A stretch of DNA of 63,093 nucleotides, counting the filler, from Thraustochytrium aureum (Eukaryota): NCBI GenBank assembly GCA_012862495.1. It is 4 parts of 2 records of this genome, joined end to end, with 100 filler letters (N's around TTAATTAATTAA, not from the genome) between each part and the next. Parts side by side here need not be neighbours in the genome. Positions count along the whole stretch, not along the records: positions 12,252 to 40,165 come from BLSG01000170.1; 3 more parts are not named here. One strand, given 5' to 3'. The notes under the pieces are model-generated. The model was not told the DNA's origin, made no database searches, and saw only the letters and a list, made by a program, of their open reading frames with translations. The translations under genes were made by a program, and so were the position numbers. Within the stretch, counting starts at the first letter, position 1. Every line of letters begins with the position of its first letter. This document shows positions 12,152 to 57,069 of this stretch, in pieces.

Positions 12152-12251
12152 NNNNNNNNNNNNNNNNNNNNNNNNNNNNNNNNNNNNNNNNNNNNTTAAT
12201 TAATTAANNNNNNNNNNNNNNNNNNNNNNNNNNNNNNNNNNNNNNNNNNNN
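12152..12251. other. Artificial scaffold linker N44-TTAATTAATTAA-N44
   Basis: Exactly 100 nt, palindromic core with stops in all six frames; identical to the linkers at 40166 and 56970. Confidence 0.97.
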
Positions 12252-14452: not shown

Positions 14453-15897
14453 NNNNNNNNNNNNNNNNNNNNNNNNNNNNNNNNNNNNNNNNNNNNNNNN
14501 NNNNNNNNNNNNNNNNNNNNNNNNNNNNNNNNNNNNNNNNNNNNNNNNNNNNNNNNNNNNNNNNNNNNNNNNNNNNNNNNNNNNNNNNNNNNNNNNNNNN
14601 NNNNNNNNNNNNNNNNNNNNNNNNNNNNNNNNNNNNNNNNNNNNNNNNNNNNNNNNNNNNNNNNNNNNNNNNNNNNNNNNNNNNNNNNNNNNNNNNNNNN
14701 NNNNNNNNNNNNNNNNNNNNNNNNNNNNNNNNNNNNNNNNNNNNNNNNNNNNNNNNNNNNNNNNNNNNNNNNNNNNNNNNNNNNNNNNNNNNNNNNNNNN
14801 NNNNNNNNNNNNNNNNNNNNNNNNNNNNNNNNNNNNNNNNNNNNNNNNNNNNNNNNNNNNNNNNNNNNNNNNNNNNNNNNNNNNNNNNNNNNNNNNNNNN
14901 NNNNNNNNNNNNNNNNNNNNNNNNNNNNNNNNNNNNNNNNNNNNNNNNNNNNNNNNNNNNNNNNNNNNNNNNNNNNNNNNNNNNNNNNNNNNNNNNNNNN
15001 NNNNNNNNNNNNNNNNNNNNNNNNNNNNNNNNNNNNNNNNNNNNNNNNNNNNNNNNNNNNNNNNNNNNNNNNNNNNNNNNNNNNNNNNNNNNNNNNNNNN
15101 NNNNNNNNNNNNNNNNNNNNNNNNNNNNNNNNNNNNNNNNNNNNNNNNNNNNNNNNNNNNNNNNNNNNNNNNNNNNNNNNNNNNNNNNNNNNNNNNNNNN
15201 NNNNNNNNNNNNNNNNNNNNNNNNNAGTAGCTAGTAGTAGCGCGGATTGCCAATGAGCCCGAGGAGCAGGTGCAGGCGCGAGAGCCCCACTCCCACCCAC
15301 TCCACCGGCCCCGGAAGCCGTGAGGACGCGCCAACCGAGAGCGCGCGAGCGCACAGCGTGAGAGTGAGCACCTCCTCACAGCCAGCGCATTCCAAAACGC
15401 CATTGTCCCCGAACGGCACTTGCGAGAAACCTCCAAAGCGCCTCGCTCCCCTCACGGGCATTCTCAACTCCCCGGTGGCGAAAGGCCCCCACATCCCGCG
15501 CCCCCCTTGACCCGAAAGTATCCCCGACAAAGTAGATGGTTTGGCCGACGCCGAAAGGTGTGTGGCCTCCGTCGTGTTTGTTCTTCTTCGAGATTTGCCT
15601 GTGTCTTGGAAGGAGGGGGGAAGGGGGAGTTAGGAAGGAAGGAAAGAAGGAAGGAAGTACGACTCGATGCCTGGAGGAGCCACGCGCAGGAGGCCGCACA
15701 CGAACAATCCCTCCACGCTGCGCTGGCAGACCGCGAAAGCTGCTCGAGGGCGCTCGGTCGCTCGGTCGGTCGGTCGGTTGGTTGGTTGGTTGGTTGGTTG
15801 GTTGGTGGCGGGCTGCTGCGTTGCGGGCTGCTGCTGTGTCGGAGGCCGCGCGCTGGTGCGGGGCTCGGTCGTGCGCCGTGGGCGCGGCAGCGCGAGG

Positions 15898-18741
15898 ATG
15901 GCGCCGGGATGGAGGGCTGAAGTGTTCGCCGTCGTGGTCGTGGCCGCCGCGCTCGGGGCGCTCGTGCAGGAGGCGAGCGCGAGGAAGGCAGAGTACAGGA
16001 TGACCATCAGAGACTTTCTGCCGGCGAATTGCATGAGGCGGAGCGAGTACCAAGTGGCCTGGGGCAGGTCCTCAGCTGATTTCGGAATCCGAGACTCGAC
16101 GTACGACAACGCAGCGACCCTCACGGGCACGCTATTGGTGAATAGTGAGAGCCTTGATTGGGCTGTGTTTTGCCCGTATTGGGAAGAGATGCGGGCGGGC
16201 AACATATCCGGCCACCCGGACTTTGAGTCGACCGGATACGTCGACGGGCCGAGCTGCACCGTCGGCTGTGACGGGGTCCCAGATAGCTCTCCAACGATCA
16301 CCCCCGTTGTGCTCAACGACCTCGAGACAGCCTCCTCAGGGCTCCGCAAGCTTGTGTACTGCTTGCCGGGGGACGAGGACCGGTGTGGCCGAGGACTGGC
16401 GGACGACAAAAAAGACCTTTTCACGACCTCGCGTGGCAAGTTCTTCAAGTCGTGGTACTACGACGACCCGAAGTACAACAAGCGCGTCGGAGTCACGATT
16501 GAGCTCGAAGGGAACGGCAACTTGGTCGAATTCAACTCGGAGGAGTTCTGCAAAGTGGAACAGGGCAAGGCGACGTGCTCCAACCCAAAGTTCGACCCGC
16601 TGCGGAGCTACGTCTCAAAAGTAGCCGAGGCGACATACAGGGACGTTTACCCTCGCGCCGCAGACGCGCCGGCCTGGCCAAGCTCAATCTCAGGCTCCGC
16701 GACTTATCCCAACTCCAAGTTCTGGTACACAACGGAGATTCACACCTATTTTGAGTTCGCGGGGGATGAGGTTTTCGAGTTCAAGGGCGATGATGACGTC
16801 TGGGTTTTCATCAACGGTAGGATGGCCGTGGACCTGGGTGGGCTGCATTCGCCGAAAGAGGGCAAGGTAGTTCTCAGCGACCCGGCCATTCAACTGGCGC
16901 TCAACATCACCCCAGGTCTGGGCAACATCTACAGGTTCGACATGTTCCACGCGGAGCGCCACATTGACGGCAGCAACTTCAGGATCACCACTTCGCTCTC
17001 CACGGCCTGCAACGTAGCCGACACGAATGCAAACGAGGTCGCCTTTTCCTGGGCGAACGTGTCCGCTTCGTCGTTCTCGTTTGGCGGGCCAGCCGAGCTG
17101 CTCGGCGAAGGGGACTCGGCTTTGCTTCGCCTGACCTCCAACTCCACGGCTTTCCGCAACGCGGCCACACACGCGTACCTGGTTCAGCAGCAGAACGTGG
17201 GCACGGGCTTTGTGACCGAGTTTACATTTGCGGCCTCGGCTGAAGGCAACGCGCAGGGCTTTGCCTTCGTGATGCACAACCGCGCCGCTGGCCTGAAAAA
17301 CATGCCCCAAACGACCGGGCCGAGCCTGAACATCAGATACCTGGAGCGGAGCGTTGCTGTCGTGTTCGACATGTGCGTCACGCTGGACCCCGCCACCGGC
17401 GCCTGCGAAGGCCAGCGTGTCAGCATCCACTACCCCAAGGTGGACGGAGAGTTCAACGATGTCAGCAACAACACGGTCACAGTTTTCGACACCGTGCAGC
17501 GCACCCTGCGCTACCCGGGCGAGACGCACTTGGTGCGCATCGAGTACCTGCAGTCCCCTCCGTGGCTGGAGGTCTACATCGACAACTCTCTGTACCTGCG
17601 CGACGAGGACTTTGACATCACACGGATCCTCGGCGGCCGCAACGCGTATGTCGGCTTTTCTGCCTCGACGACGAGTGACCCAGTGGAGATTTTGCTCTCC
17701 GATTTCTCGATAAACACTGTGCGCGTCGACCCATCCAAGACGTTCGGGCTCACCCTGCAGCCCAACGCGACAGCGTCTGAGATTCAAGCGGACGGAGCGG
17801 ACGCGGCCGAGTTTTCCTTCCAGACGCGCGACTTTTGCGGGAACTTGATCCAGTACGGTGGCTTCAAGTCTTTCGGCACTGGCTACTTTGTGGAGATCAT
17901 CCCGGAGCTCGTTGCCCTCGATGAGGATGGTGTTGCGCCGGATTCTCGCCTCCTCGCAGAACTGGACGAGCTCACGTATTTCGGTGGAGCGTTGGAGCCG
18001 GCCATCGTTCCCGCTGAGATTGTGGACAACGGGGACGGGTCGTACGCTGCCAGGCTCGCAACCGACCTCCCCGGCGCGTTTGCCCTCTACGTCTGCTTCG
18101 GGAAAGGTGGGTGCAACTTTAGCATCTCGTTCGAGGACGCGGAGGTCGTGTTCCCTGGCTCAAACTTCACCCAAGGCCTGACGTGGGCTGTGCTGAGCGC
18201 GAGCGCCACCGCAGAGTACGTTGGCACCGTTCGCAACGCGGTTGGCGTTGTGGCGCTCACGAATCGGCCCACGACTTCGCCCACGGCCTCCATCCCGCCC
18301 CCCGAGCCGGACAATGCCGAGACGATCAAGTGGGCCGCTGTGGGCGGTGGTAGCGCCTTCTTTGTGTTTTTGTGCATCTCGTTTATCGTGCTCCGCAACC
18401 GGCGTCGCTGGCGCAAGGACAAGGCCTTCATCGAGAGCGGGAAGCTCTACAACATCGACAAAGACGTTACTTACGACAAGGCGGACGAGTACGGCGTGGT
18501 CGGCCGTATGCTTCTCAGCACGCGCGCAGCCATCATGCGAGAGCGGGCGCAGACCGTCAAGGCCCCGCTGGCCACCGAGATCAACGCGCTTGTCACCGAA
18601 AACGAGGAACTCAAAGAGCAGGTCCGAGTCAACAAGATGCACACTCAGGTCTCGGCTACGCTTGCCTCGGCGCCGGCTCGGCCCGGCGCTAGCAAGCCTA
18701 GGCGCAAGGAGTACAACGGGGACGACCATGAGTCGCTCTAA
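15898..18741 (+). CDS. Type I membrane protein: signal peptide, PA14/fibro-slime (Psi-like) domain, legume-lectin-like domain, filamin/Ig-like repeat, TM, short coiled-coil tail
   Basis: Signal MAPGWRAEVFAVVVVAAALGALVQEASA; TIRDF, HPDFE, FWYTTEIHTYF..FEFKGDDDVWVFING..VDLGGLH, FHAERH (fibro-slime/PA14); LLRLT..GFVTEFTF..GFAFVMH..AYVGFSAST (L-lectin); IVDNGDGSY (filamin-like); TM AAVGGGSAFFVFLCISFIVL followed by RNRRRWRK. Confidence 0.88.
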   Translation: MAPGWRAEVFAVVVVAAALGALVQEASARKAEYRMTIRDFLPANCMRRSEYQVAWGRSSADFGIRDSTYDNAATLTGTLLVNSESLDWAVFCPYWEEMRAGNISGHPDFESTGYVDGPSCTVGCDGVPDSSPTITPVVLNDLETASSGLRKLVYCLPGDEDRCGRGLADDKKDLFTTSRGKFFKSWYYDDPKYNKRVGVTIELEGNGNLVEFNSEEFCKVEQGKATCSNPKFDPLRSYVSKVAEATYRDVYPRAADAPAWPSSISGSATYPNSKFWYTTEIHTYFEFAGDEVFEFKGDDDVWVFINGRMAVDLGGLHSPKEGKVVLSDPAIQLALNITPGLGNIYRFDMFHAERHIDGSNFRITTSLSTACNVADTNANEVAFSWANVSASSFSFGGPAELLGEGDSALLRLTSNSTAFRNAATHAYLVQQQNVGTGFVTEFTFAASAEGNAQGFAFVMHNRAAGLKNMPQTTGPSLNIRYLERSVAVVFDMCVTLDPATGACEGQRVSIHYPKVDGEFNDVSNNTVTVFDTVQRTLRYPGETHLVRIEYLQSPPWLEVYIDNSLYLRDEDFDITRILGGRNAYVGFSASTTSDPVEILLSDFSINTVRVDPSKTFGLTLQPNATASEIQADGADAAEFSFQTRDFCGNLIQYGGFKSFGTGYFVEIIPELVALDEDGVAPDSRLLAELDELTYFGGALEPAIVPAEIVDNGDGSYAARLATDLPGAFALYVCFGKGGCNFSISFEDAEVVFPGSNFTQGLTWAVLSASATAEYVGTVRNAVGVVALTNRPTTSPTASIPPPEPDNAETIKWAAVGGGSAFFVFLCISFIVLRNRRRWRKDKAFIESGKLYNIDKDVTYDKADEYGVVGRMLLSTRAAIMRERAQTVKAPLATEINALVTENEELKEQVRVNKMHTQVSATLASAPARPGASKPRRKEYNGDDHESL

Positions 18742-20315: not shown

Positions 20316-20548
20316 CCGCAGGGTTCGAGCTTGCGCGCCCACCCTTTTGCATTGTACAGTACTAAAGACACGAGAGATTAACCGGTTGCCCGCTTTGACG
20401 ACCCGGCCTCGCCGCGCGCCCGTCCGCAGCCCTCCTGCACTCCCAACGAGATCCGGCTGGCGCAGCAAGCGGGACGGGGACCAGCGCCGCACGCAGACCA
20501 GCCGACAAACAAACAAACAAACAAACCAAAAAACATTTTCATTCTGTC

Positions 20549-23500
20549 CTAGATACAACCTGTTGGAGATGGCCGCCACGACAAACGACTGCTTGACAAC
20601 TTCAAGGGGGAGGGCGAGCTCCTCGGCAAGCGTCGCAACCTTCGCCCTGTCGAGCGTGATTGCAAAAGGGTCCGGCCCTGCGCCACCCGCGGCCTCGTCG
20701 CCGCTCCCGCCCCTCGCGCGAGGCGCAGAGTCACCGGGCCCGCTGAGACACGCACGGATCTTCGGGTCAGCCCTCGCTCTAGCCATGAGCGAGAAGGAAA
20801 TGTCCTGAAGCACCCTGCGCGCAGATTCGGCAGTCTGCACGAGCTGGGCGTCGATCTCAAACCCACTGACATCGTCAAAGCCGCGAATCCAGTCGTGATG
20901 CAGCAGCTCCTCCGCCGTCGGACGCTCACTAGGATCCAGGCGCAGGCCTTGCGCGAGGAAATCACGATACTCCTTGGAGAACGTGACAACCTCGCCCTGG
21001 CCTCGCGCGTCTGTCCTCAGAGCGGACCGGAACAAGACGCTCTCGGGAAGCTCGAGTGGCTCGCCCGTGCGCCAGCGCTCGAGGAGCTTCCAGTACACGG
21101 CAGAGCCCTGGTTGGCATCCGACTCGCCACCGGAGGAGGCCGCGCTGAAGGAGCGCGCGCGAGCCCCCGGCGCGTTCGGTCCGTCTTCCTTTGCGACGGG
21201 CTTGCAGATCAGCTCGTCCGGATAGTGACCCAGCGTGACCGCCATCATGGAGAGAGCGAACGAGAAGATGTCGCAGGGATAGCTGTACTGCTCCCCGCGC
21301 AGGCGTTCTGGGCTCATGTACTTCATCGTGCCCACAAAGGTGGACGCAAAGTGGTGGCCCGCCTCCTCCAGCTGGCGCGCAAGACCAAAGTCGGCAAGCT
21401 TCACCTGCCCCTTGCTACTGATCAGGATGTTGGCAGGCTTGATGTCCAGGTGCAGCATGTTGTGCGTGTGCAGGTACGCAAGAGCGCGGAGCACGCTCCG
21501 CGCAATCAGAGCAAGCGTCCGCTCAAAGCAAACGCCCGTGGAAACGACGAGGCCGCCCGATGACGCAAACGCCTCTCGCTGCGGTGCAGCCGCGCCCCGA
21601 CCCATCCGTGGCTGCCCCTGCACAGAGCCAAGGCTTTCGGGCTCGCGTGGAGCACGCGCAACGTCTTCGCGCGCATTGGCTGAGATGCTAGGAGCATCCT
21701 CGCTCGACTGACGCTGGCGCATGCGCGAGANNNNNNNNNNNNNNNNNNNNNNNNNNNNNNNNNNNNNNNNNNNNNNNNNNNNNNNNNNNNNNNNNNNNNN
21801 NNNNNNNNNNNNNNNNNNNNNNNNNNNNNNNNNNNNNNNNNNNNNNNNNNNNNNNNNNNNNNNNNNNNNNNNNNNNNNNNNNNNNNNNNNNNNNNNNNNN
21901 NNNNNNNNNNNNNNNNNNNNNNNNNNNNNNNNNNNNNNNNNNNNNNNNNNNNNNNNNNNNNNNNNNNNNNNNNNNNNNNNNNNNNNNNNNNNNNNNCCCA
22001 GGGCATGCTGGTGCGGGCTTGACACCTTGACGGCCTCGGGAAGAGCGCTGGGACAAGCAACGGGCGTCGAGTCTGCTTGAACGGCTTCCGCAACGCGCAG
22101 CCGGTTCAGCAAGTCTTGCAGCGACCCACCATCAAAGTACTCCATCACCAGACAAACCGACTGCGAGTCCGGGTCAAGGTACGCCTCGTGCAGCCAGACG
22201 ATATGCGGGCATGGCGCCTGGCCGTCGGTGAGCGCGGCCAACGTCGACTTTTGACCGAGCGAGCCGAGCTTGCGGTACAGCGCGTTGAGTTCGCGAACAG
22301 CCTGGTGGCGCGAGCTCCGGTCAGTGAAGCGGATCTCCTTGACAGCGACCAGCTTAAACGTGGGCAGATGCAGCGCGGCGTAGACGGAGCCGCTCACCCC
22401 CTTGCCCAGGTCGCCAAAGCGAAACAGAGTGTCCTTGACCGGCACGCCACCCGCAACGACGGCGGGAACGCCAGGTCGCAGCGCGGTGGAGCTGGACTTG
22501 CGCGGCGTCACAGGGACCGACGTATCGCTCGAGTCGTCCCCGTCGGCGTCCAACTCGATGGACGAAGACGAGGACCGCGACGTCGGCTCTTCGTCCTCCA
22601 GGCCGCCCTCGGTAATCTTGAAACCCTGCATTTGCAAGACGTTGTTGGCGAACATGAAGGTTTGAGCCGAGGTCGCGAGCGCGTTGAGCGGGTTCGAGGC
22701 GTCGGACGGCGTGGCCATGGCACCGGCCTGCCTCGCTGCTGCGTCGATCTCGACAAAGCGCAGAGACATGGGAGCCAGCGCCGGCATCTCGAGCTGCAGC
22801 CCAGACGAGCTCCCGGCACCGCTGATGTCAAGTTCGAGCCCTTGACCGGGGTAGGCGCTGCCTGGAGGGAGGCGCCTTTGGGGGTTTACCGGCCGGCGGC
22901 TTGTGTGCAAAAACGCGAGCCCCGAGACCGAGTGCAGCGGGTTGGCATAGCCGGAGGCGGGCTGAGCGATGAGCTCCACTACGGCGACCTTGCTGCGCAC
23001 CTCGCCGGTCCCCAGTAGCTGCACGTCCGCGGCATGGCGATCCGGGAAGATGGCGAGGACGGTGGCCGGGAGGTAGCGGCGGGCCTGGTAGTCCCAGACA
23101 CCAACGCTGTCGCCAACGTTGAATGCAGAGACCGGTCGGCTGAGCATTTTGCTCCCGACGACGCGCTTGCCGATACACGAGTCGAGCGCCATGATGACGG
23201 CCGGGAACGCGGGTCGGTCCTCGGGGTCTTCGGCCCAGCAGCATCGCACCAACTCGACCAGCGCGGGGTCTACCTTGATGGCTGGATCAACGGGGGGCGG
23301 TGCTTGTTGTTGCGAACCTCAAAGAAGAGGCGCGCCACCGTCCAAGACCGAGGGTGCGGTTGGCGTTGGTACAGGATCTGCCAGAGCACCAGCCCATAGC
23401 TGTACACGTCGATCTTCTTGTCGATGTGCTTTGCTTCGAGCAAGATCTCTGGCGCCATATACGCCGGGGTCCCACATGGGGCGCTCTCTACCTTTTGGTT

Positions 23501-26500
23501 TGGCCCATGGGAAAACTTGGCGATGCCGAGGTCGCAGATCTTGGCGTTGCCGGCCGGGTCCAGCAGCACGTTCTCCGGCTTGATGTCGAAGTGGATCATC
23601 TTGTTCTCGTGGATGTAGGCGCACCCGCTTGCGATCTGGCGCGCGATGGAAAGCTTGCGCTCCAAGGTGAACTCCTTGAACGAGAGGTTCTGGCTCTTGG
23701 AGGTCTTGAGAATAAGGTCCAGCAAGCTGCACGCTGCCAGCTCCATGACCACGAGGAATCGCCACCCTCCGGTGTCGTTGCTGTGCGCCTCCGTGCAACC
23801 GTACAGCTGGATGATGTTTGGGTGACGGAGCCGACGGAGGTTTTTCACCTCGTTCAAGATTTCCTCCGGCGGTGTTTCGCGCACAAGGGAGCGGCTGCTC
23901 GATGTCGAGCCGCCGGTCAGCGTGATTGGCTGCCTCTGCTCCTCGCTCTGCAGCCCATGCAAGCTCCTGTCCTCCAACGTGCCTGGGCCTACCCTGCCCA
24001 CGGCGTTAGCTATCGCCAGCTGCTGCATGAGCGACTGCACGCCGACACCGCCATCAAGACCGTCGGGCCCCAGGTCGTTGCTTCCAGATCGCAGCAGAGC
24101 GGACCCACGGCGGTTGCCTCGATAGGTTGCCGAGCCAAGTACTGGCGTTCCTGCAGCGCTAGAGGCGCTCGCGACCCCCACAGAATTTTGAGAGCCCGCA
24201 GCGACAGACGAGGTTGCGCTCATCGATGTCGTCGTGGACGACCCTGTGAACGCGCTGATCGTCGAGTCAACGGAAGGGGCAGAGCTCTTGTGCTTGAGAA
24301 GGCGAGCGCGATGGGCACTGCTGGCCGAACCGATCGACGGGCTCGCACCATGGAGCGCTCCTTTGACAGAGGCGTCGTCGTTTGCAGCTCCGCCGGGCTG
24401 GCCGTTCGCTCCTGGGAGCGGCTGCGCATTAGCCGCGACGCCTATGACAGGTGGGACTGCTACAATGGCGACGCCGGCGGCGGCCGAAGCAGGCTGCTTT
24501 AGGGCTGCGACGGGCAGCGCCTCGGAGCCAGCCGGAACTGCTTCCGACGGCAGCGGGTTTTCGTGCCTCGGCGTGAGCGAGCTCGTTCCTGGCGCGAGCC
24601 CGCCCAACGCTAGATGGGGGACACTCGGCTTTGGCGCTGCGGGGCCCGCAATAGACGAGGCGCCAGAGGACCCCGAACGGTACGTTCCGCTGCTCGCGTA
24701 CCTGTTGGGGCCAGGATTTGCGGCGCGGCGCCGCGCTGCAGCGTCGAGCGGGCGAGGAAACAGCTCCTTGACGGCCACATCCGAGCCGCAGTAGGTAGCC
24801 TTGAAGATCCGACCGTTGGCGCCGAGGCCGATGACAGGCCCAAGGATGAGCTGGTTGAGCTCGATCTGGAGGCCGCTGATCCCGGCGGACGCGCTGTCAG
24901 ACGAGCCGCCCGTCGAGTGCCGCGAAAGGTAGTTGCGGCTGCTCGNNNNNNNNNNNNNNNNNNNNNNNNNNNNNNNNNNNNNNNNNNNNNNNNNNNNNNN
25001 NNNNNNNNNNNNNNNNCGTTTCCAGAACCTTGAAGCCCTTGTCCGAGGCCCGCTCCGTCGCTGCGGCGGCGCGGTCTCCGCCAGAGGGCTTTGCGGACGA
25101 GAAAACCGAGTGCTTGCCAGAAACCGTCCCCACTTCGCGGTCCGATTTGTCGCGGCGCCAATAGGCGATTCCTGCGACGACAACAAGCAGCGCTACCCCC
25201 AAGGAGGGCGCCCACGACGACTGTCGTGCTGTTTTCTTCGATTTGGCTTCCCTTCGTCGACGCCGTCGGCGCCGCCGTCGGAGCGTCATTCCGCGGGACG
25301 AGCGACTCGATATTCGGGCAAGGAAACTCGTTCGCCCCGTCGATCGCCTCGATATTTCGTGTCGGGATCACCGTGGAGGAGAACCGAAAGAGCGACTCGA
25401 ACCAAATCGTCTCGTTGTCGGCGATCTCGTCGAATTCGGCGTCCACCCTGCCACGCGCAAGGGCCATCCAGGCATCCGGGACCCACCCGGGGTACAGCAC
25501 ATAGGTTTCGTTGATGGCCGGAATTTTCGCTGTGTACAGTGGGCCGTCCTCAAACTGGAACAGATACCGGAGGTATTCATACGTCGTAACCTGCGCTGCC
25601 GAAGGAGCCGCTACGGGGGCCGCTACGGGAGCCGCTACGGGCGCAGCAGAAGGAGAGGCGACGGGGAGCGCGACCGGGCTGGGCAACAAGGAGGGCACCG
25701 CAGTGGGCTGAGGCGAATTCGTCGCGTTCCCAGTCGCGACCCCTGGCGTCGGCGCAGCGCTCGGGCTAACCGCTTGGGTCGGTTGGGGCACAGGGCCGGA
25801 GGGCGGCAGTGCCTGCAGCTGGCGTCGCACCTGTCCGGCGCTCGACGTAGGCGGACGCGCGAGGCTTGGCGGCTCGACGGGCGACGGTGTCGTTCGGCCT
25901 GGCTCGACTATCGCTGACGGCGCTGGAACGGGGGCCAGCGAGGGACGCGGCGAGGGCCGAATCGTCGTCGGCATAGCGGTTGGCGGAGTGGACGGCGGCT
26001 TGGCGTGGATTGTGAGCTGCGAGTTTACGACGAGCTCAAACGTGACGAGGCACACGTGGCGTATGTGCTGCTTGCCAAGGTCGGCCGAGAGGTCGATGTA
26101 GCGGCCGTCGCTGCCCAAGGTGACGCAGTCCGACACGTTGACGAAGGGCACGAGTTCGCTGCCGTCCAGGTCAAACTTTTTGTTCTTGATGTCCAGGTCG
26201 GAGGGCCATTGCTGGGCCATGAGCCCCAACATGACGCACCGAAACCCTTTTGTCACAACTGCTGAAGGCTCAGGCTCGAAGCTGAATCCCATCAGCACTG
26301 CGCCAGATATTGAAGCATAGCGACCAACGGTGGGCGAGGCTGTAGGCGACGGCGTGGGCGCCGGCGTCGGCCTTTGTGTCGTGGGCGAGACCGTCGGCGA
26401 GCGCGTCGGCAGCATGGTTGGCGCCGTTGGGGCGAGCGTAGGAACGATGGGGACGACTGGCGAGGGAGTGGGCGAAGTGGTCGGCACCGGCTCCGCTGTG

Positions 26501-27166
26501 ACCTCCGAGTGAAGGTACTCGCTAGTGCAAGGCCCGCCACGCGTGATTTGCTCCTTGCCGTCCACCACGAGTACCTCCGTGGCGCACCAGCCTTCGAAAG
26601 TGGGCTCGTCCAACGCGTCACTGAGCGCCTTGGTGAGCTTCGCCCACGGGTTGTTGCGCGGCGGCTTTTGGCACGCGTTGAACGCGTCAACTACGACCTT
26701 GTTCCTGTATGTGAACGGCACGGCGCAGTTGACGGGCTCGGAGGACTCCTCGAGGAGCATGTCGGTCAGTCCCTTTTCGCTCCTAAAGGTGGTCGTCCAC
26801 AGCTGACGTACCCCGGTTTGCGTTGCGCGCACTGACAGGGATTTAGCCCCCGCCGTTGGCAAGCTCTGCGCGAGCGCGGGCCCCATCACGTCCTCGCCAA
26901 GCCCGCCAAGAGCCGGGACGTGCGAGCGGCGTTCGCACTTGCAATAGAGCCAATACAGGCTGTACCGCTCGGAAGACCTGTTGTAGCTCTGAAAGGCGGG
27001 ACACCAAAGGTCGATGTCCGCCGCGAACGTCTTGTTCGGCTCCGCGCCAGCCGGAACAAACCCGTTCTTTTTTGATGCGCAAGACCCTTGCGGGAAGCGC
27101 TGCACGCCGAGGCAATTCTTTCCTTGGCAGGAGGGCTCCCACGTCCACTCGTTTTCCGCATAGCAG
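20549..27166 (-). CDS. Single-pass receptor with tandem TKL and MAP2K-like kinase domains (5' end in gap; frameshifts near 25198 and 23295; internal gaps; 3' end approximate)
   Basis: Ectodomain is Cys-rich then P/T-rich. TM TTVVVGALLGVALLVVVAGIAYWRR appears after removing one G from a G5 run. TKL: IGLGANGRIF..VAVKE, HPNIIQLYG, HFDIKPENVLL, ICDLG, GTPAYMAPE, CWAEDPEDRP. Second kinase: LGKGVSGSV..VAVKE, HLDIKPANIL, DFG, TFVGTMKYMSPERL. Confidence 0.85.
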
Positions 27167-27489
27167 NNNNNNNNNNNNNNNNNNNNNNNNNNNNNNNNNN
27201 NNNNNNNNNNNNNNNNNNNNNNNNNNNNNNNNNNNNNNNNNNNNNNNNNNNNNNNNNNNNNNNNNNNNNNNNNNNNNNNNNNNNNNNNNNNNNNNNNNNN
27301 NNNNNNNNNNNNNNNNNNNNNNNNNNNNNNNNNNNNNNNNNNNNNNNNNNNNNNNNNNNNNNNNNNNNNNNNNNNNNNNNNNNNNNNNNNNNNNNNNNNN
27401 NNNNNNNNNNNNNNNNNNNNNNNNNNNNNNNNNNNNNNNNNNNNNNNNNNNNNNNNNNNNNNNNNNNNNNNNNNNNNNNNNNNNNNNNG

Positions 27490-28110
27490 TCGCTTCCTGC
27501 GCACTCGCGCGCTGCCCCGCCTGCTTCGCCCCTGCTTCGCTCCTGCTTCGCGTCCTGCTTCGCGTCCTGCCCGCGCCGCCTCCCGCTTCGCGTCCTGCCC
27601 GCCTGCTTGCCTTCTGCTTGCCTCCTGCTTGCTTCTGCCTCTCCGCGCGGCTGCTCCCTCCCTCTCTGCCTCTCTCTCTCTGTCCCTGTCGCCCATTCTC
27701 TGACTCTCTTTCCCTTTCTTCAGGCTTCCCTTTCTGACTGTCTCCCTTTCTGTCTCTCTTTCCCTTTCTTCAAGCTTCCCTTTCTGGCTGTCTCCCTTTC
27801 TGCCTTCCCTTCTTGTCTGCCTCTCTTTCGGTTGTCTCGCTTTCTGACTGTCTCCCTTCAGGCTTCCCTTTCTGCCTTCCCTTCTTGTCTGCCTCTCTTT
27901 CGGTTGTCTCGCTTTCTGCCCTCCCTTTCTGGGGCCGCCCTTGTTTGGCTCTCTTTGGGTGGCCTGTCTCTCTATCGGCTGTTGTCTCTCTTTCGGCTGT
28001 TGTCTCTCTTTGGGTGGTTGCCTCTCTCGGTGGCCCTTCTGAACTGAGCGAACTGACTCTGCGTCTGTTTTTGAGTCTGTCTCCTGCCTGTCTCGCTGGC
28101 GCCTCTCTCT
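27490..28110. repeat. Polypyrimidine (CT-rich) low-complexity tract with a 72-bp internal duplication
   Basis: Plus strand is strongly C/T-rich. CCCTTTCTGCCTTCCCTTCTTGTCTGCCTCTCTTTCGGTTGTCTCGCTTTCTG occurs at 27794 and 27866. Confidence 0.85.
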
Positions 28111-28835
28111 CTCAGGCTGGGGCTGGTTTGCAATTTGCAAATGCGGCGCGGCCCCTCCCTGCGGCGTTTGCGCCTCCCTGCGTCGGCCTCCCTCCCTGCG
28201 CAGCAGCAGCGCGTTCAAGTTTCGCAGCTGCCTACTTGGCGCAGAGCAGAACCGGAACAGACTGAATGCGCCCGCGCGCCTCCCTGCCCCTGCCACGCCT
28301 TTGCGTCCAAGTTCAAAATTCAATTCAAGTATCGATTGAATTGAGCGTATTGCTTCACGCGCTCGTGAGGGAGCTGCTCCGCGGGTTTCCCAGACGCCCT
28401 CCATCGCGTTGGCGTTTTTACTCTCTTGAGGCCTTTTCGTTCGCAAAGCAGATCTGTCCTCCTTGAAGGCTTGGCAGACGTTGACCACTTTTTTCACTTT
28501 TTTGAGAGCGGTTGGGCGGACCAAGTCGGGCGGGCGATTATTCTCCACCTTCCTCCTCTCCTTCCTTCAAGCGAACCCTCAGAACAGACGAGAGGGCGCG
28601 TTTTTTTCTGTTCTGAATGCACTCTGAGGACGGGAAATGCACTCACACAAGAGGACGAAACGCTGAGGGCTCACTTGGGGCTCACTCCTTTTCCTTTTTT
28701 CTTCATCAAAAAAGCACCTTTTTTCCGCCCCGAATTTGGCGCATTCGGTAACGGTCCTTCACGAAAAGGAGCAGTTCTTTGTACTCGTCCCCCTCAGGCG
28801 TGCACGACTTGTCTGCGACGAGAGATCAGAACAGA

Positions 28836-30118
28836 TCAGAAGGAGAGCTCGCGGGCGAAGTCTGTGCGCGCGACCTGGCTGCCGAAGACCACCGACGGCA
28901 ACAGTCGCATAAAGCGGTGCAAAATGTAGCCCGTGAGACCCCAAATGACGTGCTCGCTTGGAGCGCCGCGCTGACGAAACACCGGAGGGCTGTACTCGCG
29001 AACAACCCAGTTGTCCTGGTCGAGCAGCGCCTCCACGGTCACGGTGAACGAAGAGCGAACCTCGCCCGGGTTGGGGTCCAGCTTGAGCTGCTCAAAGTTG
29101 CCCAGGTACCCGACAATCGGGGTGACCGCCACGCCGGTGATGGAAGTGACCTCGCTCCAGTCGCAGCGCAACACGCCGAGAACGTCCACCACGTCCGGGT
29201 GGATGCCCACCTCTTCGTGCAGTTCACGCAGACCCGCGTCAACGATGCTCGGGTCAGAGTCGTCCACCATGCCGCCAGGAAAGCAGACCTCGCCCTTGTG
29301 CCTGTTCACATTATGCGAGCGCTCTGTGAACAGAATGGACGGCTCGCCTTTGACGTGGCAGAGCGGGAGGATCACGCTGGCCCGCTTGCGCGCCCGGCTC
29401 GAGATCTCGCGCGGCAGTCGGTTCAGCCGCTTTTTCAGCCGTGCGAGCACCTTGGGGCTGAACAGGCCCCCCTCAGCCTGCCGCGGCAAAACGTAGTCGC
29501 CACTGTCAAGGGGCGGCGTAGCGGTGCTCGAGTCAGCCCGGCGCTCCGGCCCCGCGTGGCCGCCGCCCTCGATGCCGTCCAGCTCGGGGGGCCGCTCCGG
29601 GCTGAACCCGCGGTGCGATGAAGGCAGCACGGCAAAGGGTGCCAGCAGGTCGCGCAGCTCGCTAATCGCTTGTGCGCTTGGAGGCTTGGCCTCCGCTCCT
29701 TCGGCGCAGAGGCGCGCAGCGCACTCTGCCAGAATCTCCTCGCGGTCTCGCAACGCGCGAGCAAGCGCAGGCGCCGTGTAGTGGTGCACCAGCGCCTCCA
29801 GGTCCTGGCTTTTACGCCCCGAAACAGAGTACCCGCGGTACCCCGAGTCGTCGCGCCTGTCGAGCCACTTGAGCAGCCGCTCGACCGTTTCCTTGCTTCG
29901 CGCCTTGGCTGAACCGGCGACAGCCTGCCCGAGGCCGCGCCAGTCAGCGGCTTGGCAGCCGCCTCAGCACTCGCGCCTTCTCCGCCGCCTGCCTGCGCTG
30001 CGCTGCTGCCGCTTGCCAAGTGGCGCCGCCACGGGCCGCCGCTGACGCACCGATTCTCCCGGCAAGCGCCGCTCGCGAGCGAGACCAGCCCGCCAACGCG
30101 CCGCCGCCAACGCATCAT
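28836..30118 (-). CDS. Nudix CoA pyrophosphatase (NUDT8/PCD1-like) with N-terminal extension; at least one frameshift in the 5' part
   Basis: RASVILPLC...LFTERSHNVNRHKGEVCFPGG..D....AGLRELHEEVG (NuCoA motif plus Nudix box), VTPIVG, IWGLTGYIL. Arg-rich transit-like start MMRWRRR. Confidence 0.88.
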
Positions 30119-37390: not shown

Positions 37391-37996
37391 TCAAGGCACC
37401 GGCTCGTAGGCGCGCAGGGCCTGCTGCGCCAGGTGGTACACGTTAAAGTAAAGCTGGCCCTGGCCCGCTGGCGTTGAGAGATCGTAGCGAAAATGCTCGC
37501 ACAAAAACTCTGCAACCAAGCTGAGCACAATCATCGAGGTGGCCTCATACTCCTTCTCGGAGCGGATCTCGCAGGGCGGCCAGCGGTCCACCGCAAAGCA
37601 CGTCACTGCCTTGACGAGCGTGCGCAGGTCGAGCACTCCAAGCGCGCATGCCATGCCGGCGCGGTCCTCGCCCAAAAAGTCGAGTAGCGTCCGTGGCGTT
37701 CCGTCGTGGAGCTCTGCGTCGCGTGGGTTGGTCTTCTTCCACCGCAGGACGAGGGAATACAGCTTCTTCTCGCGCCTGTATTCTTGGTTCATGGTTGCGC
37801 TCGACTCTTGCTTTAATTTGCGCTCGTGGTCGTGCAGCTGGTACTCGATCACCCGCGGCACCTCTGCGAAGCGGACGGCCGTCATCTTGCGGGGAGTGCT
37901 GCGGTTTGCGAGCGACACGGATGGGGATTTGCTTGCGTTGGACGACGACGGGCTCGGGTCGGCTGCTACGAACGAACGCAGACAGCCTTTTCTCAA
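37391..37996 (-). CDS. Hypothetical protein
   Basis: 201-aa open frame with globular composition; start uncertain. Confidence 0.45.
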   Translation of the reverse strand: MRKGCLRSFVAADPSPSSSNASKSPSVSLANRSTPRKMTAVRFAEVPRVIEYQLHDHERKLKQESSATMNQEYRREKKLYSLVLRWKKTNPRDAELHDGTPRTLLDFLGEDRAGMACALGVLDLRTLVKAVTCFAVDRWPPCEIRSEKEYEATSMIVLSLVAEFLCEHFRYDLSTPAGQGQLYFNVYHLAQQALRAYEPVP

Positions 37997-39602
37997 TTAG
38001 CTGACTGTGAAAGTGCCAGCGCGGCGGCACGATCAATCAGGGACTGGGCCTGGAGAGGCAGGCTTTTGCGACGCTCCCGCGCGAGCAGGTTTCAGCTCTT
38101 GCCGTGCGCTGTGGCAGCGGCTGGCTCCCTGCAGCTGCGCTGGCTGTGAGTCTGCCGAAAGGCCCAATGCAGTGATCTGGCTCGGACCGATGATGGCGCG
38201 ACAGCGCCGAACTCGACAAATCGGATCTACCTCCTCGGCCGGCTGTCGCGGTTCAGCTGCCTTGCCTTCTTCAACTCCTGACTGACTCCTGTTTGGTGTG
38301 CAGGCTGATGAAAGGGCTAAGTACTTACTCTGTAGGTAAGGGTCTGTGACGGTTTTGGTTTGGGGCCCAGGTCGGCGCTCTTTTCCGGCTCGAGCCGCAT
38401 TTCTCCAGAGCGACGAGTTGCCAAAGCACGCGAGCTGACTGCCCGCCGCCTGCCTGATGAATGATCAGGTGCGGCTGGAGGGTACCTGTGGCAGCAAGCA
38501 AGCAGCGCTGCTCGGCTCCCTGCAGTCGTTCAATTCTTGGAGGCCACGCGCATGCCGCTCGGAACGGAGCTCTCGCTGAATGCAGGCTGGATGGAAGGCG
38601 CTCAAGGGCACCGCTTCAAGAGCGTCAGCTCCCTCGGCGCCGGCTCGAGAGGCGCTGACAAAAGCTGTAGTATGCGTCCTGCCAGTGCGTGTTGAGGGAG
38701 CGGAGGCGCTGGCGAGGCGGCTCTTGAGTGCCGCTTGCGCGAAACTGCCAACTCGTACGTTTACAAGTAGAGTAAGCGTGCTTCATCAGCCGGAGTTGGA
38801 TGGCGGGAGCGAGCCGGATGCTGCCGCCGCCGCCGCGCTGACCTCGCGTCCTTCCTCAAGAGCGCCCTCACCGCGTGCGGGCGTGTTTGGAAGATGTCGC
38901 CAGGGTCCTGGCTCGGCTGCTGGGCGGCTCGCTTGCTCGCCCGTTCGCCTGCTCCTTGTCCCTGCAGAGGAGTCGACCGGCTCCTCTCTCAGCATGGCTG
39001 AACGCAAGCCGGTCGCGCCTGCGACTTGGGTACGATCCAGTAACTGCCCTGCCTCCGTGGATGGATCGTGCTGCGGACGAGCCTCCGCGACGCCGCAGCA
39101 GGCAAACGTTCAGCCTGCATCGGGGAGGAGCCAAGCGGTTTCAGCGCGCTTGTCCGCCTCCAGGCGCACAACGCAACGAACNNNNNNNNNNNNNNNNNNN
39201 NNNNNNNNNNNNNNNNNNNNNNNNNNNNNNNNNNNNNNNNNNNNNNNNNNNNNNNNNNNNNNNNNNNNNNNNNNNNNNNNNNNNNNNNNNNNNNNNNNNN
39301 NNNNNNNNNNNNNNNNNNNNNNNNNNNNNNNNNNNNNNNNNNNNNNNNNNNNNNNNNNNNNNNTCTGCTGTAGTGGTAAGGTGTGGGGCTATGGGCCGCG
39401 CTGCCGGAATGTGTCGTCGCGATGGCATGCAGGTCGTCCAGGGCATACGGCGGCGGAGGCGCTTGCTCGCCTGCGGCCACGTGCAACGTGCAAGCAACTG
39501 TCTCGAGAGAGTAGAGCTGCTCTACTACGAGTCGACTAGGAGTTGAGAAAGATTCAAAGAAACGATCTGTTCTGTTGTTTCCTCCCGAGAACACCGCAGG
39601 TA

Positions 39603-40165: not shown

Positions 40166-40265
40166 NNNNNNNNNNNNNNNNNNNNNNNNNNNNNNNNNNN
40201 NNNNNNNNNTTAATTAATTAANNNNNNNNNNNNNNNNNNNNNNNNNNNNNNNNNNNNNNNNNNNN
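40166..40265. other. Artificial scaffold linker N44-TTAATTAATTAA-N44
   Basis: Identical 100-nt structure. Confidence 0.97.
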
Positions 40266-56969: not shown

Positions 56970-57069
56970 NNNNNNNNNNNNNNNNNNNNNNNNNNNNNNN
57001 NNNNNNNNNNNNNTTAATTAATTAANNNNNNNNNNNNNNNNNNNNNNNNNNNNNNNNNNNNNNNNNNNN
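56970..57069. other. Artificial scaffold linker N44-TTAATTAATTAA-N44
   Basis: Identical 100-nt structure. Confidence 0.97.

Follow-up and report, generated by a model that had tools for sequence, protein, structure and literature searches.

The stretch of the Thraustochytrium aureum assembly GCA_012862495.1 analysed here (63,093 nt, the window in what follows) carries on its minus strand, between positions 27165 and 20539, a gene in which a receptor is fused to two protein kinases of different families. From the N-terminus the encoded protein comprises an ectodomain with mucin-like stretches, a transmembrane (TM) helix, a kinase that classifies as TKL (kinase 1), a predicted Tudor-like barrel and a kinase that classifies as STE7/MAP2K (kinase 2). 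The fusion of receptor, kinase 1 and kinase 2 is real; its parts are known and the combined architecture is conserved, and we have not found it described. An initial annotation of this DNA had read the locus as a hard-wired cascade, which we regard as plausible in the form of a modified, non-canonical and still putative relay.

The assembly is GC-rich and gap-ridden, and without correction the locus falls into four frames. The first holds the ectodomain (to ~25207), the second the TM helix and juxtamembrane region (25202-25017) and the third kinase 1 (24943-23273), while the fourth (23318-20160, interrupted by an N gap) takes in the last part of kinase 1, the barrel and kinase 2. Within the last of these an open minus-strand frame, 23318-21996, runs on from the end of the kinase 1 domain through the small barrel and the kinase 2 N-lobe, bearing out the uninterrupted frame that the initial annotation had described. 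When the four best of eight listed public runs (X1-X4) are compared with the locus one base is absent at 25206 and one extra base is found behind 23288, in four of four runs each time, so that the frame changes near 25200 and 23290 are assembly errors. The proposal that single-base fixes join TKL domain and TM helix thus stands, but not the places given for them, as the errors sit in a C3 run (25206-25208) and a T2 run (23289-23290, both on the minus strand) and not in the G5 and C6 runs that had been named. The 71-N gap at 24946-25016 corresponds to 28 real letters (contigs of X1, X2 and X4 bridge it) and the 266-N gap at 21731-21996 to 50 (contigs of X2, X3 and X4), the frame being kept in both cases, and no stop is seen by eye in all 28 letters of the first and 30 of the 50 letters of the second; inner gaps that might have hidden gene boundaries are therefore bridged in frame, with 20 letters of the second not seen. 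One further extra base, behind 20560, comes from a single DNA contig (depth 2.8, weak) and moves the end of the gene to a probable TGA at 20539-20541, while the stop at the end first assigned, 20549, lies in another frame. Taken together the five corrections give a span of 6,369 nt, exactly 2,123 codons from 27165, and a frame of at least 2,122 residues.

Individual contigs cover much of this span. X4 contig 22 (3,607 nt) begins in the kinase 1 core and reaches the end of kinase 2 in one piece (20561-24382), X3 contig 17 covers 22574-24945, and X4 contig 23 extends over 24607-25569, across the TM helix. RNA-like contigs enter the gap at 27167-27488 from both sides (loose ends 27166 and 27489); the start codon and signal peptide presumably lie in this gap, and full-length relatives have a hydrophobic stretch at the N-terminus, as judged by eye and by hydropathy. 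Two points count against a single gene. No single contig among the runs spans all of it, and X2-X4, which are RNA-like and all from one study, are RNA by guess. A spliced intron was sought as proof, and the sole candidate in these runs, a skip of 81 nt at 37948-38028, lacks GT-AG boundaries whichever register is tried, so that their RNA status continues to rest on that guess; missing cover at 27923-28345 and 38498-39343 was left out of the argument. The skip itself is seen in X2-X4, X2 also has the unskipped form, and it is probably an in-frame indel allele. Forty of 118 strain differences are listed and 39 of these 40 lie within the gene, 27 of them synonymous and 28 at third positions, with 12/12 synonymous in the kinase cores and barrel and 6/6 in the core of kinase 2.

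That the assembly alone has joined two neighbouring genes, or the parts of a processed or split product, is in our judgement very improbable. Such a reading could draw on the lack of a whole-gene contig, on the 20 unseen letters and on three clusters of relatives that contain shorter open reading frames (ORFs), but these ORFs break at varied places (in the ectodomain, within kinase 1, within the barrel) and never at a domain boundary, the junction between the kinases is one open frame inside one contig, and both kinases recur in 26 other records. The TM helix, TKL domain, Tudor-like segment and STE7 domain that had been assigned to one polypeptide do belong together, and the gene divides as follows, with the basis of each assignment in brackets.

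27167-27488, minus strand: assembly gap, presumed to hold the start codon and signal peptide (N run; contig ends; N-termini of relatives)
26512-27165, minus strand: Cys/Trp-rich N-terminal region of the ectodomain, no Pfam or Atlas match (conservation; model mostly below pLDDT 70, pLDDT being the predicted local distance difference test score)
26323-26511, minus strand: Pro/Thr-rich mucin-like stalk 1 (sequence; disordered in the model)
26029-26322, minus strand: predicted SEA-like domain, part 1, beta-alpha-beta-beta (model residues 282-379; structural matches)
25585-26028, minus strand: Pro/Ser/Thr/Ala-rich mucin-like insert within the SEA-like fold (model residues 382-526, pLDDT below 50)
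25369-25584, minus strand: predicted SEA-like domain, part 2, alpha-beta (model residues 528-599; conserved in 7 close relatives)
25158-25221, minus strand: single TM helix, then basic residues; includes the assembly error at 25206-25208 (four of four runs; family alignment)
24946-25016, minus strand: juxtamembrane assembly gap, 28 real letters in frame (bridged in X1, X2, X4)
23166-24860, minus strand: kinase 1, TKL by classification, non-RD, with His-Phe-Asp in place of His-Arg-Asp (HRD); includes the assembly error at 23289-23290 (Pfam; motifs; TKL clade; profile)
24803-24829, 24764-24778 and 23579-23593, minus strand: Gly loop, beta3 Lys and catalytic loop of kinase 1 (motifs)
23900-24760, minus strand: low-complexity insert of kinase 1, ~286 residues (sequence)
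22968-23123, minus strand: predicted Tudor-like five-stranded barrel, receptor half (model; Foldseek; structural matches; unfused receptors)
22602-22658, minus strand: pre-kinase beta motif of the MAP2K half (conserved in members with intact kinase 2)
20886-22425, minus strand: kinase 2, STE7/MAP2K by classification, non-RD (His-Leu-Asp), one activation-loop Thr (PDB matches; tree; test of tree topology; motifs)
22389-22406, 21438-21452 and 21306-21392, minus strand: Gly loop, catalytic loop and activation segment of kinase 2 (motifs)
21731-21996, minus strand: assembly gap in an insert of kinase 2, 50 real letters in frame (bridged in X2, X3, X4)
20539-20828, minus strand: conserved C-terminal segment and probable stop at 20539-20541 (family alignment; stop from one low-depth contig)

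By Pfam the last three of the pieces queried contain kinase domains, and the ectodomain and TM pieces give nothing. The long insert of kinase 1, the insert of kinase 2, the SEA-like fold and the non-RD character of both kinases had no place in the initial annotation. The linker before kinase 2 (22720-22760, minus strand) holds a short Pro-containing linear motif ending in Phe, found in 5 of 21 linkers and in fragment P0125, that is a candidate docking or autoinhibitory element.

Three homology searches and a full scan of 1.84 billion representatives (best 150 listed) yielded at least 26 other records with both kinases, some of them partial and two (P0041 and P0042) near-twins, so that the combination of TM helix, TKL and STE7 for which other proteins were searched is indeed found elsewhere. 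Named members come from Hondaea fermentalgiana (P0001, P0152, P0155) and Mucochytrium quahogii (P0105), both Thraustochytriidae; P0001 carries the automatic UniRef label MAP kinase kinase, and the three Hondaea paralogues represent RD, non-RD and dead versions of kinase 2 in one genome. P0042 and P0160 are labelled Batrachochytrium salamandrivorans (BASA81 loci), a doubtful label given that the other named members are thraustochytrids, and a mixed or mislabelled assembly is possible. P0026, P0100 and P0105 are single ORFs from transcript assemblies, in clusters that also hold shorter ORFs. In one supported subfamily kinase 2 is dead while kinase 1 is intact and the C-terminal segment conserved. 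A different protein, P0044 (Hondaea fermentalgiana GBG30141.1, 2,069 residues), has no TKL domain and carries a non-RD MAP2K-like kinase that nests among the fused kinase 2 domains, behind an ectodomain that by eye is LRR-like and Cys-rich and seven hydrophobic peaks at 941-1322.

Other kinase tandems were met in these searches. P0192 (Paulinella micropora), P0049 and P0208 are a separate type of tandem, an STE-group kinase joined to a MAP2K, with no TM helix seen. Both domains form supported clades of their own, the STE-group kinase being placed close to PAK and STE11-like rows, and on these trees the three represent a second, independent fusion of an upstream kinase to a MAP2K. TM helices together with two to four TKL-like kinase domains occur in P0161, P0173, P0180, P0187, P0193, P0196, P0201, P0202, P0238, P0259 and others, in some with a TM helix before each domain and in none with a MAP2K-type domain.

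Kinase 1 is assigned by sequence to the TKL group, with TAK1 and CTR1 nearest. In a quick tree it lies in a clade with IRAK, RLK and other TKL-like rows (SH-aLRT, the approximate likelihood ratio test, 97), outside the RLK/IRAK clade itself, and a profile of ten kinase 1 rows ranks TAK1 and CTR1 first at 199-200 bits, the next family reaching 183; a single partial kinase 1 query gives a mixed list led by Snf1 and CTR1. The kinase 1 domains form a clade of their own (34 rows, support 99) in a tree that holds no named Raf, MLK or TAK1 sequences. Catalytic residues of this copy are intact, and across the family the catalytic Asp is kept in 27/27 members, 26 of which are non-RD.

The assignment of kinase 2 to the STE7/MAP2K family, again from sequence comparison, was examined in a tree of 45 rows, four of them STE11/STE20-like outgroup rows and none an animal MAP2K, that took in 14 of the fused domains of a first alignment, five later ones and P0044. 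Kinase 2 falls within the MAP2K clade at 100/98 together with named plant, fungal, oomycete and Fonticula STE7 kinases, and forcing it together with the four outgroup rows is rejected (approximately unbiased, AU, test, p-AU 0.003), which upholds the STE7 membership that the initial annotation had made a pivot of its case. Best PDB matches agree, with Dsor1/MEK1 at 98 bits as against 88 for STK25. In this copy the Gly loop, beta3 Lys, alphaC Glu, catalytic Asp and Lys and DFG motif are all intact, and the catalytic loops of the 27 members read HLD in 16 and HRD in 5, lack the Asp in 5 and are unparsable in 1.

The small barrel between the kinases is predicted with confidence (five strands, pLDDT ~90), and its model matches the SMN Tudor domain (Foldseek E 7e-4), the PHF19 Tudor domain (Z 10.1, root-mean-square deviation (rmsd) 1.5, 56 aligned) and the TDRD3 Tudor domain, while a PDB search by sequence gives no match and the Atlas only leads below 0.9. 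Strands 1 and 2 have a conserved Trp and Tyr and the later positions are non-aromatic, so that a full aromatic cage is not evident, the cage positions being those that we take to be equivalent from the general form of Tudor cages and not from a sequence alignment to a solved Tudor domain. Three unfused receptors (P0206, P0224 and P0236) end just past a barrel-like segment without a second kinase, and for this reason we count the barrel as part of the receptor half and place the fusion junction right behind it. In a midpoint-rooted quick tree these three are the first branch of the kinase 1 clade, sister to the fused clade; four further kinase 1 records without kinase 2 nest within the kinase 1 clade and may be truncated or secondarily reduced. 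The trees suggest that an older TM-TKL-Tudor receptor took up a MAP2K gene behind its barrel. That the whole gene was taken up is suggested by weak matches of the pre-kinase motif (6-16 bits) upstream of the free MAP2Ks P0116, P0122, P0181 and P0203 and of the C-terminal segment (up to 27 bits) in free MAP2Ks. For the fused kinase 2 domains, which form three groups in the free tree, a single origin is neither shown nor rejected (p-AU 0.41).

Pro, Ser and Thr make up 31% of 650 ectodomain residues and are concentrated in two stretches. The Cys-rich N-terminal part has 15 invariant columns across 7 relatives, 8 of them Cys, and is conserved in close relatives only. Searches of the ectodomain gave no Pfam family, no Atlas match and no Foldseek match at E<=0.001. 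The best part of its model is made up of residues 282-379 and 528-599, which flank a disordered Pro/Ser/Thr/Ala insert. The top structural match of this part is to the Gpr126 ectodomain (Z 9.0, rmsd 5.4, 109 aligned), over a range that is presumably the Gpr126 SEA domain. Three MUC16 SEA entries come next at Z 6.9-7.1 (one at Z 7.1, rmsd 4.1, 114 aligned), then other, unrelated ferredoxin-like folds at Z 6.6 and below. The SEA matches cover both flanks of the mucin-like insert. We treat a SEA-like fold as a low-confidence lead from the predicted model. A likeness of the Cys-rich part to fibronectin type II domains, noticed by eye, found no support in fold-search rows that span residues 279-601 only and so barely test that part. 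The TM helix aligns across 19 of 21 family rows, two rows being truncated N-terminally, and it is the one TM helix between ectodomain and kinase 1, as in single-pass receptor kinases.

How might such a protein signal? We consider it likely, if at a confidence no better than even, that it forms a one-chain relay from surface sensing through kinase 1 and a single Thr of the tethered kinase 2 to a MAPK. Sensing at the surface would switch on kinase 1, which would phosphorylate the one conserved activation-loop Thr of kinase 2, in the same chain or across a dimer, and kinase 2 would in turn activate a MAPK as the output. Because kinase 2 lacks both the HRD arginine and the first phosphorylation site, switching would depend on a single site, which the retained Arg equivalent to MEK1 R234 may help to anchor. 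By analogy with proteins that carry SEA-like folds and mucin stalks the input may be mechanical or adhesive, and the receptors may cluster. The relay draws support from a domain order that follows that of the cascade, from the MAP3K-like nature of kinase 1, from the invariance of the Thr and from its loss in P0044, where a Lys occupies the position and a Thr lies one position away (n=1). All 20 complete intact kinase 2 domains have the Thr that corresponds to MEK1 S222 and the Arg that corresponds to R234 (MEK1 numbering by alignment of kinase 2 to MEK1 and from PMC13052910), and in simulations the phosphorylated S222 of MEK1 lies near R189 and R234 (PMC13052910, as far as the cited part of that study goes).

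A good deal tells against the relay. The ectodomain model is poor (mean pLDDT 46.9), and members of the TKL group need not be MAP3Ks. Kinase 2 looks dead in 6 of 27 members, without the catalytic Asp or unparsable, and hence the fusion persists without MAP2K catalysis. Even in complete intact fused domains the HRD arginine is found in 5/20, as against 55/56 of free MAP2Ks, and the first activation-loop Ser/Thr (at -4 or -6) in 3/20 as against 44/56, the free sample consisting of the 56 of 72 sequences that could be parsed and having been chosen by similarity, not at random; this copy has Leu in place of the arginine and lacks the first site. MEK1, according to the cited part of the simulation study, requires both sites, both of which engage R189 (PMC13052910). 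A canonical MAPK docking motif, the element with which MAP2K specificity starts in MEK1 (PMC12871702, in the portion cited), was looked for and is absent from this copy, and the family shows no enrichment for it, with 8 of 21 rows where 5.3 are expected; a basic-then-hydrophobic stretch with longer spacing does resemble by eye that in free Aphanomyces MAP2Ks. The invariant Thr could be structural, and P0044 means that the kinase 2 lineage can sit on a receptor without a tethered TKL.

Some of these observations would fit parallel outputs, with kinase 2 a phosphorylation-independent MAP2K that would be governed by tethering, by clustering or by relief from an intramolecular block and kinase 1 acting on other substrates or allosterically. 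The loss of HRD arginine and first site, the presence of the same kinase 2 lineage, minus the Thr, on an LRR-7TM receptor that has no TKL, the existence of unfused kinase 1 receptors and a non-RD plant receptor kinase that, in the cited part of its report, signals without its own catalysis (PMC8463890) all favor this arrangement, but the Thr is kept in 20/20 intact fused domains and the catalytic Asp of kinase 1 in 27/27, and we hold it to be unlikely, if deserving of serious attention. Rather more improbable in our view is a mainly regulatory or scaffolding kinase 2 that keeps kinase 1 in check or serves to hold either a MAPK or a free MAP2K, much as the pseudokinases of JAK and of cereal tandem kinases do, leaving kinase 1 as the real output. 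The subfamily with dead kinase 2, intact kinase 1 and conserved C-terminal segment speaks for such a role, and Hondaea keeps a dead-kinase-2 paralogue beside two intact ones; against it, the catalytic Asp of kinase 2 is kept in this copy and in 20 other records and the strain changes in its core are all synonymous (6/6). The one-chain relay thus stays our preferred reading for this protein. For the family we would put forward, more tentatively and with something short of even confidence, a one-chain signalling mucin of thraustochytrids and their kin that holds sensor, MAP3K and MAP2K tiers in one protein, in which a captured MAP2K was rewired from two-site to one-site control, diversified into RD, non-RD and dead forms within one genome and put to use again as an output module of an LRR-7TM receptor that is unrelated.

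Elsewhere in the window a 1,035-codon frame at 15634-18741 (plus strand), two genes away, has PA14 and legume-lectin domains by Pfam and, by eye, a C-terminal hydrophobic helix with a short tail, and is another surface protein. A NUDIX hydrolase gene (Pfam) lies upstream on the same strand as the fusion gene (28839-29963, minus). Identical patterns of 44 N, 12 bases and 44 N at 12152-12251, 40166-40265 and 56970-57069 are likely masking or scaffolding artefacts.

The kinases of a MAPK cascade are normally separate proteins that docking motifs and scaffolds bring together. With receptor, TKL and MAP2K in one natural and conserved chain, the effect of enforced proximity on a cascade becomes testable; here that proximity is accompanied by a MAP2K that has lost the HRD arginine and one phosphorylation site, and RD, non-RD and dead versions in one genome allow comparison. 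The protein is also a first candidate for a thraustochytrid surface sensor that feeds into MAPK signalling, in a group whose signalling the literature searched barely describes. Searches that included the thraustochytrid kinase literature and covered few subscription papers and no supplements gave no description of a receptor-TKL-MAP2K or MAP3K-MAP2K fusion, in line with the remark in the initial annotation that the architecture was not one it recognised.

The cascade from a TKL MAP3K of the RAF, TAK1 or CTR1 type to a MEK-type MAP2K uses the same kinase types in the same order, but here both are in one membrane protein, both are non-RD and kinase 2 keeps the second site only. RSK/MSK and JAK likewise have two unlike kinase domains per chain, of which one controls the other, but in cytoplasmic proteins and in other pairings (AGC with CAMK, or a pseudokinase with a tyrosine kinase). 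Oomycetes offer stramenopile receptor-like TKLs with TM helices, some of them dual kinases; in the cited portion of the Phytophthora infestans kinome report TM helices are confined to TKLs and the two domains of any one tandem kinase are of the same family (PMC3019232), whereas the second domain here is STE7. Cereal tandem kinases (WTK1/Yr15, RPG1, WTK7-TM/Pm36, Gb3) have two kinase domains that arose by fusion or duplication, often a kinase and a pseudokinase, and the named ones combine WAK, RLCK or LRR_8B domains or, in the intracellular Gb3, a MAP3K-like pseudokinase; no MAP2K domain or mucin-like ectodomain is described for them in the passages cited (PMC8761531, PMC13649570). The pair found here is not of the plant RLK/Pelle type, kinase 2 being STE7 and kinase 1 lying outside the RLK/IRAK clade. 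In fungi, signalling mucins that contain a SEA domain act as drivers of MAPK pathways, according to the cited part of a recent preprint (bioRxiv 10.64898/2026.05.06.723240), and with signalling mucins such as yeast Msb2 and human MUC1, as far as the sources cited describe them, the protein would share Pro/Thr/Ser-rich stalks, a predicted SEA-like fold, one TM helix and a MAPK output that in our case is putative. As described in those sources, Msb2 signals through its tail and partner proteins, whereas here the kinases are in the chain, the tail is itself enzymatic and the predicted SEA-like fold is split by a mucin-like insert.

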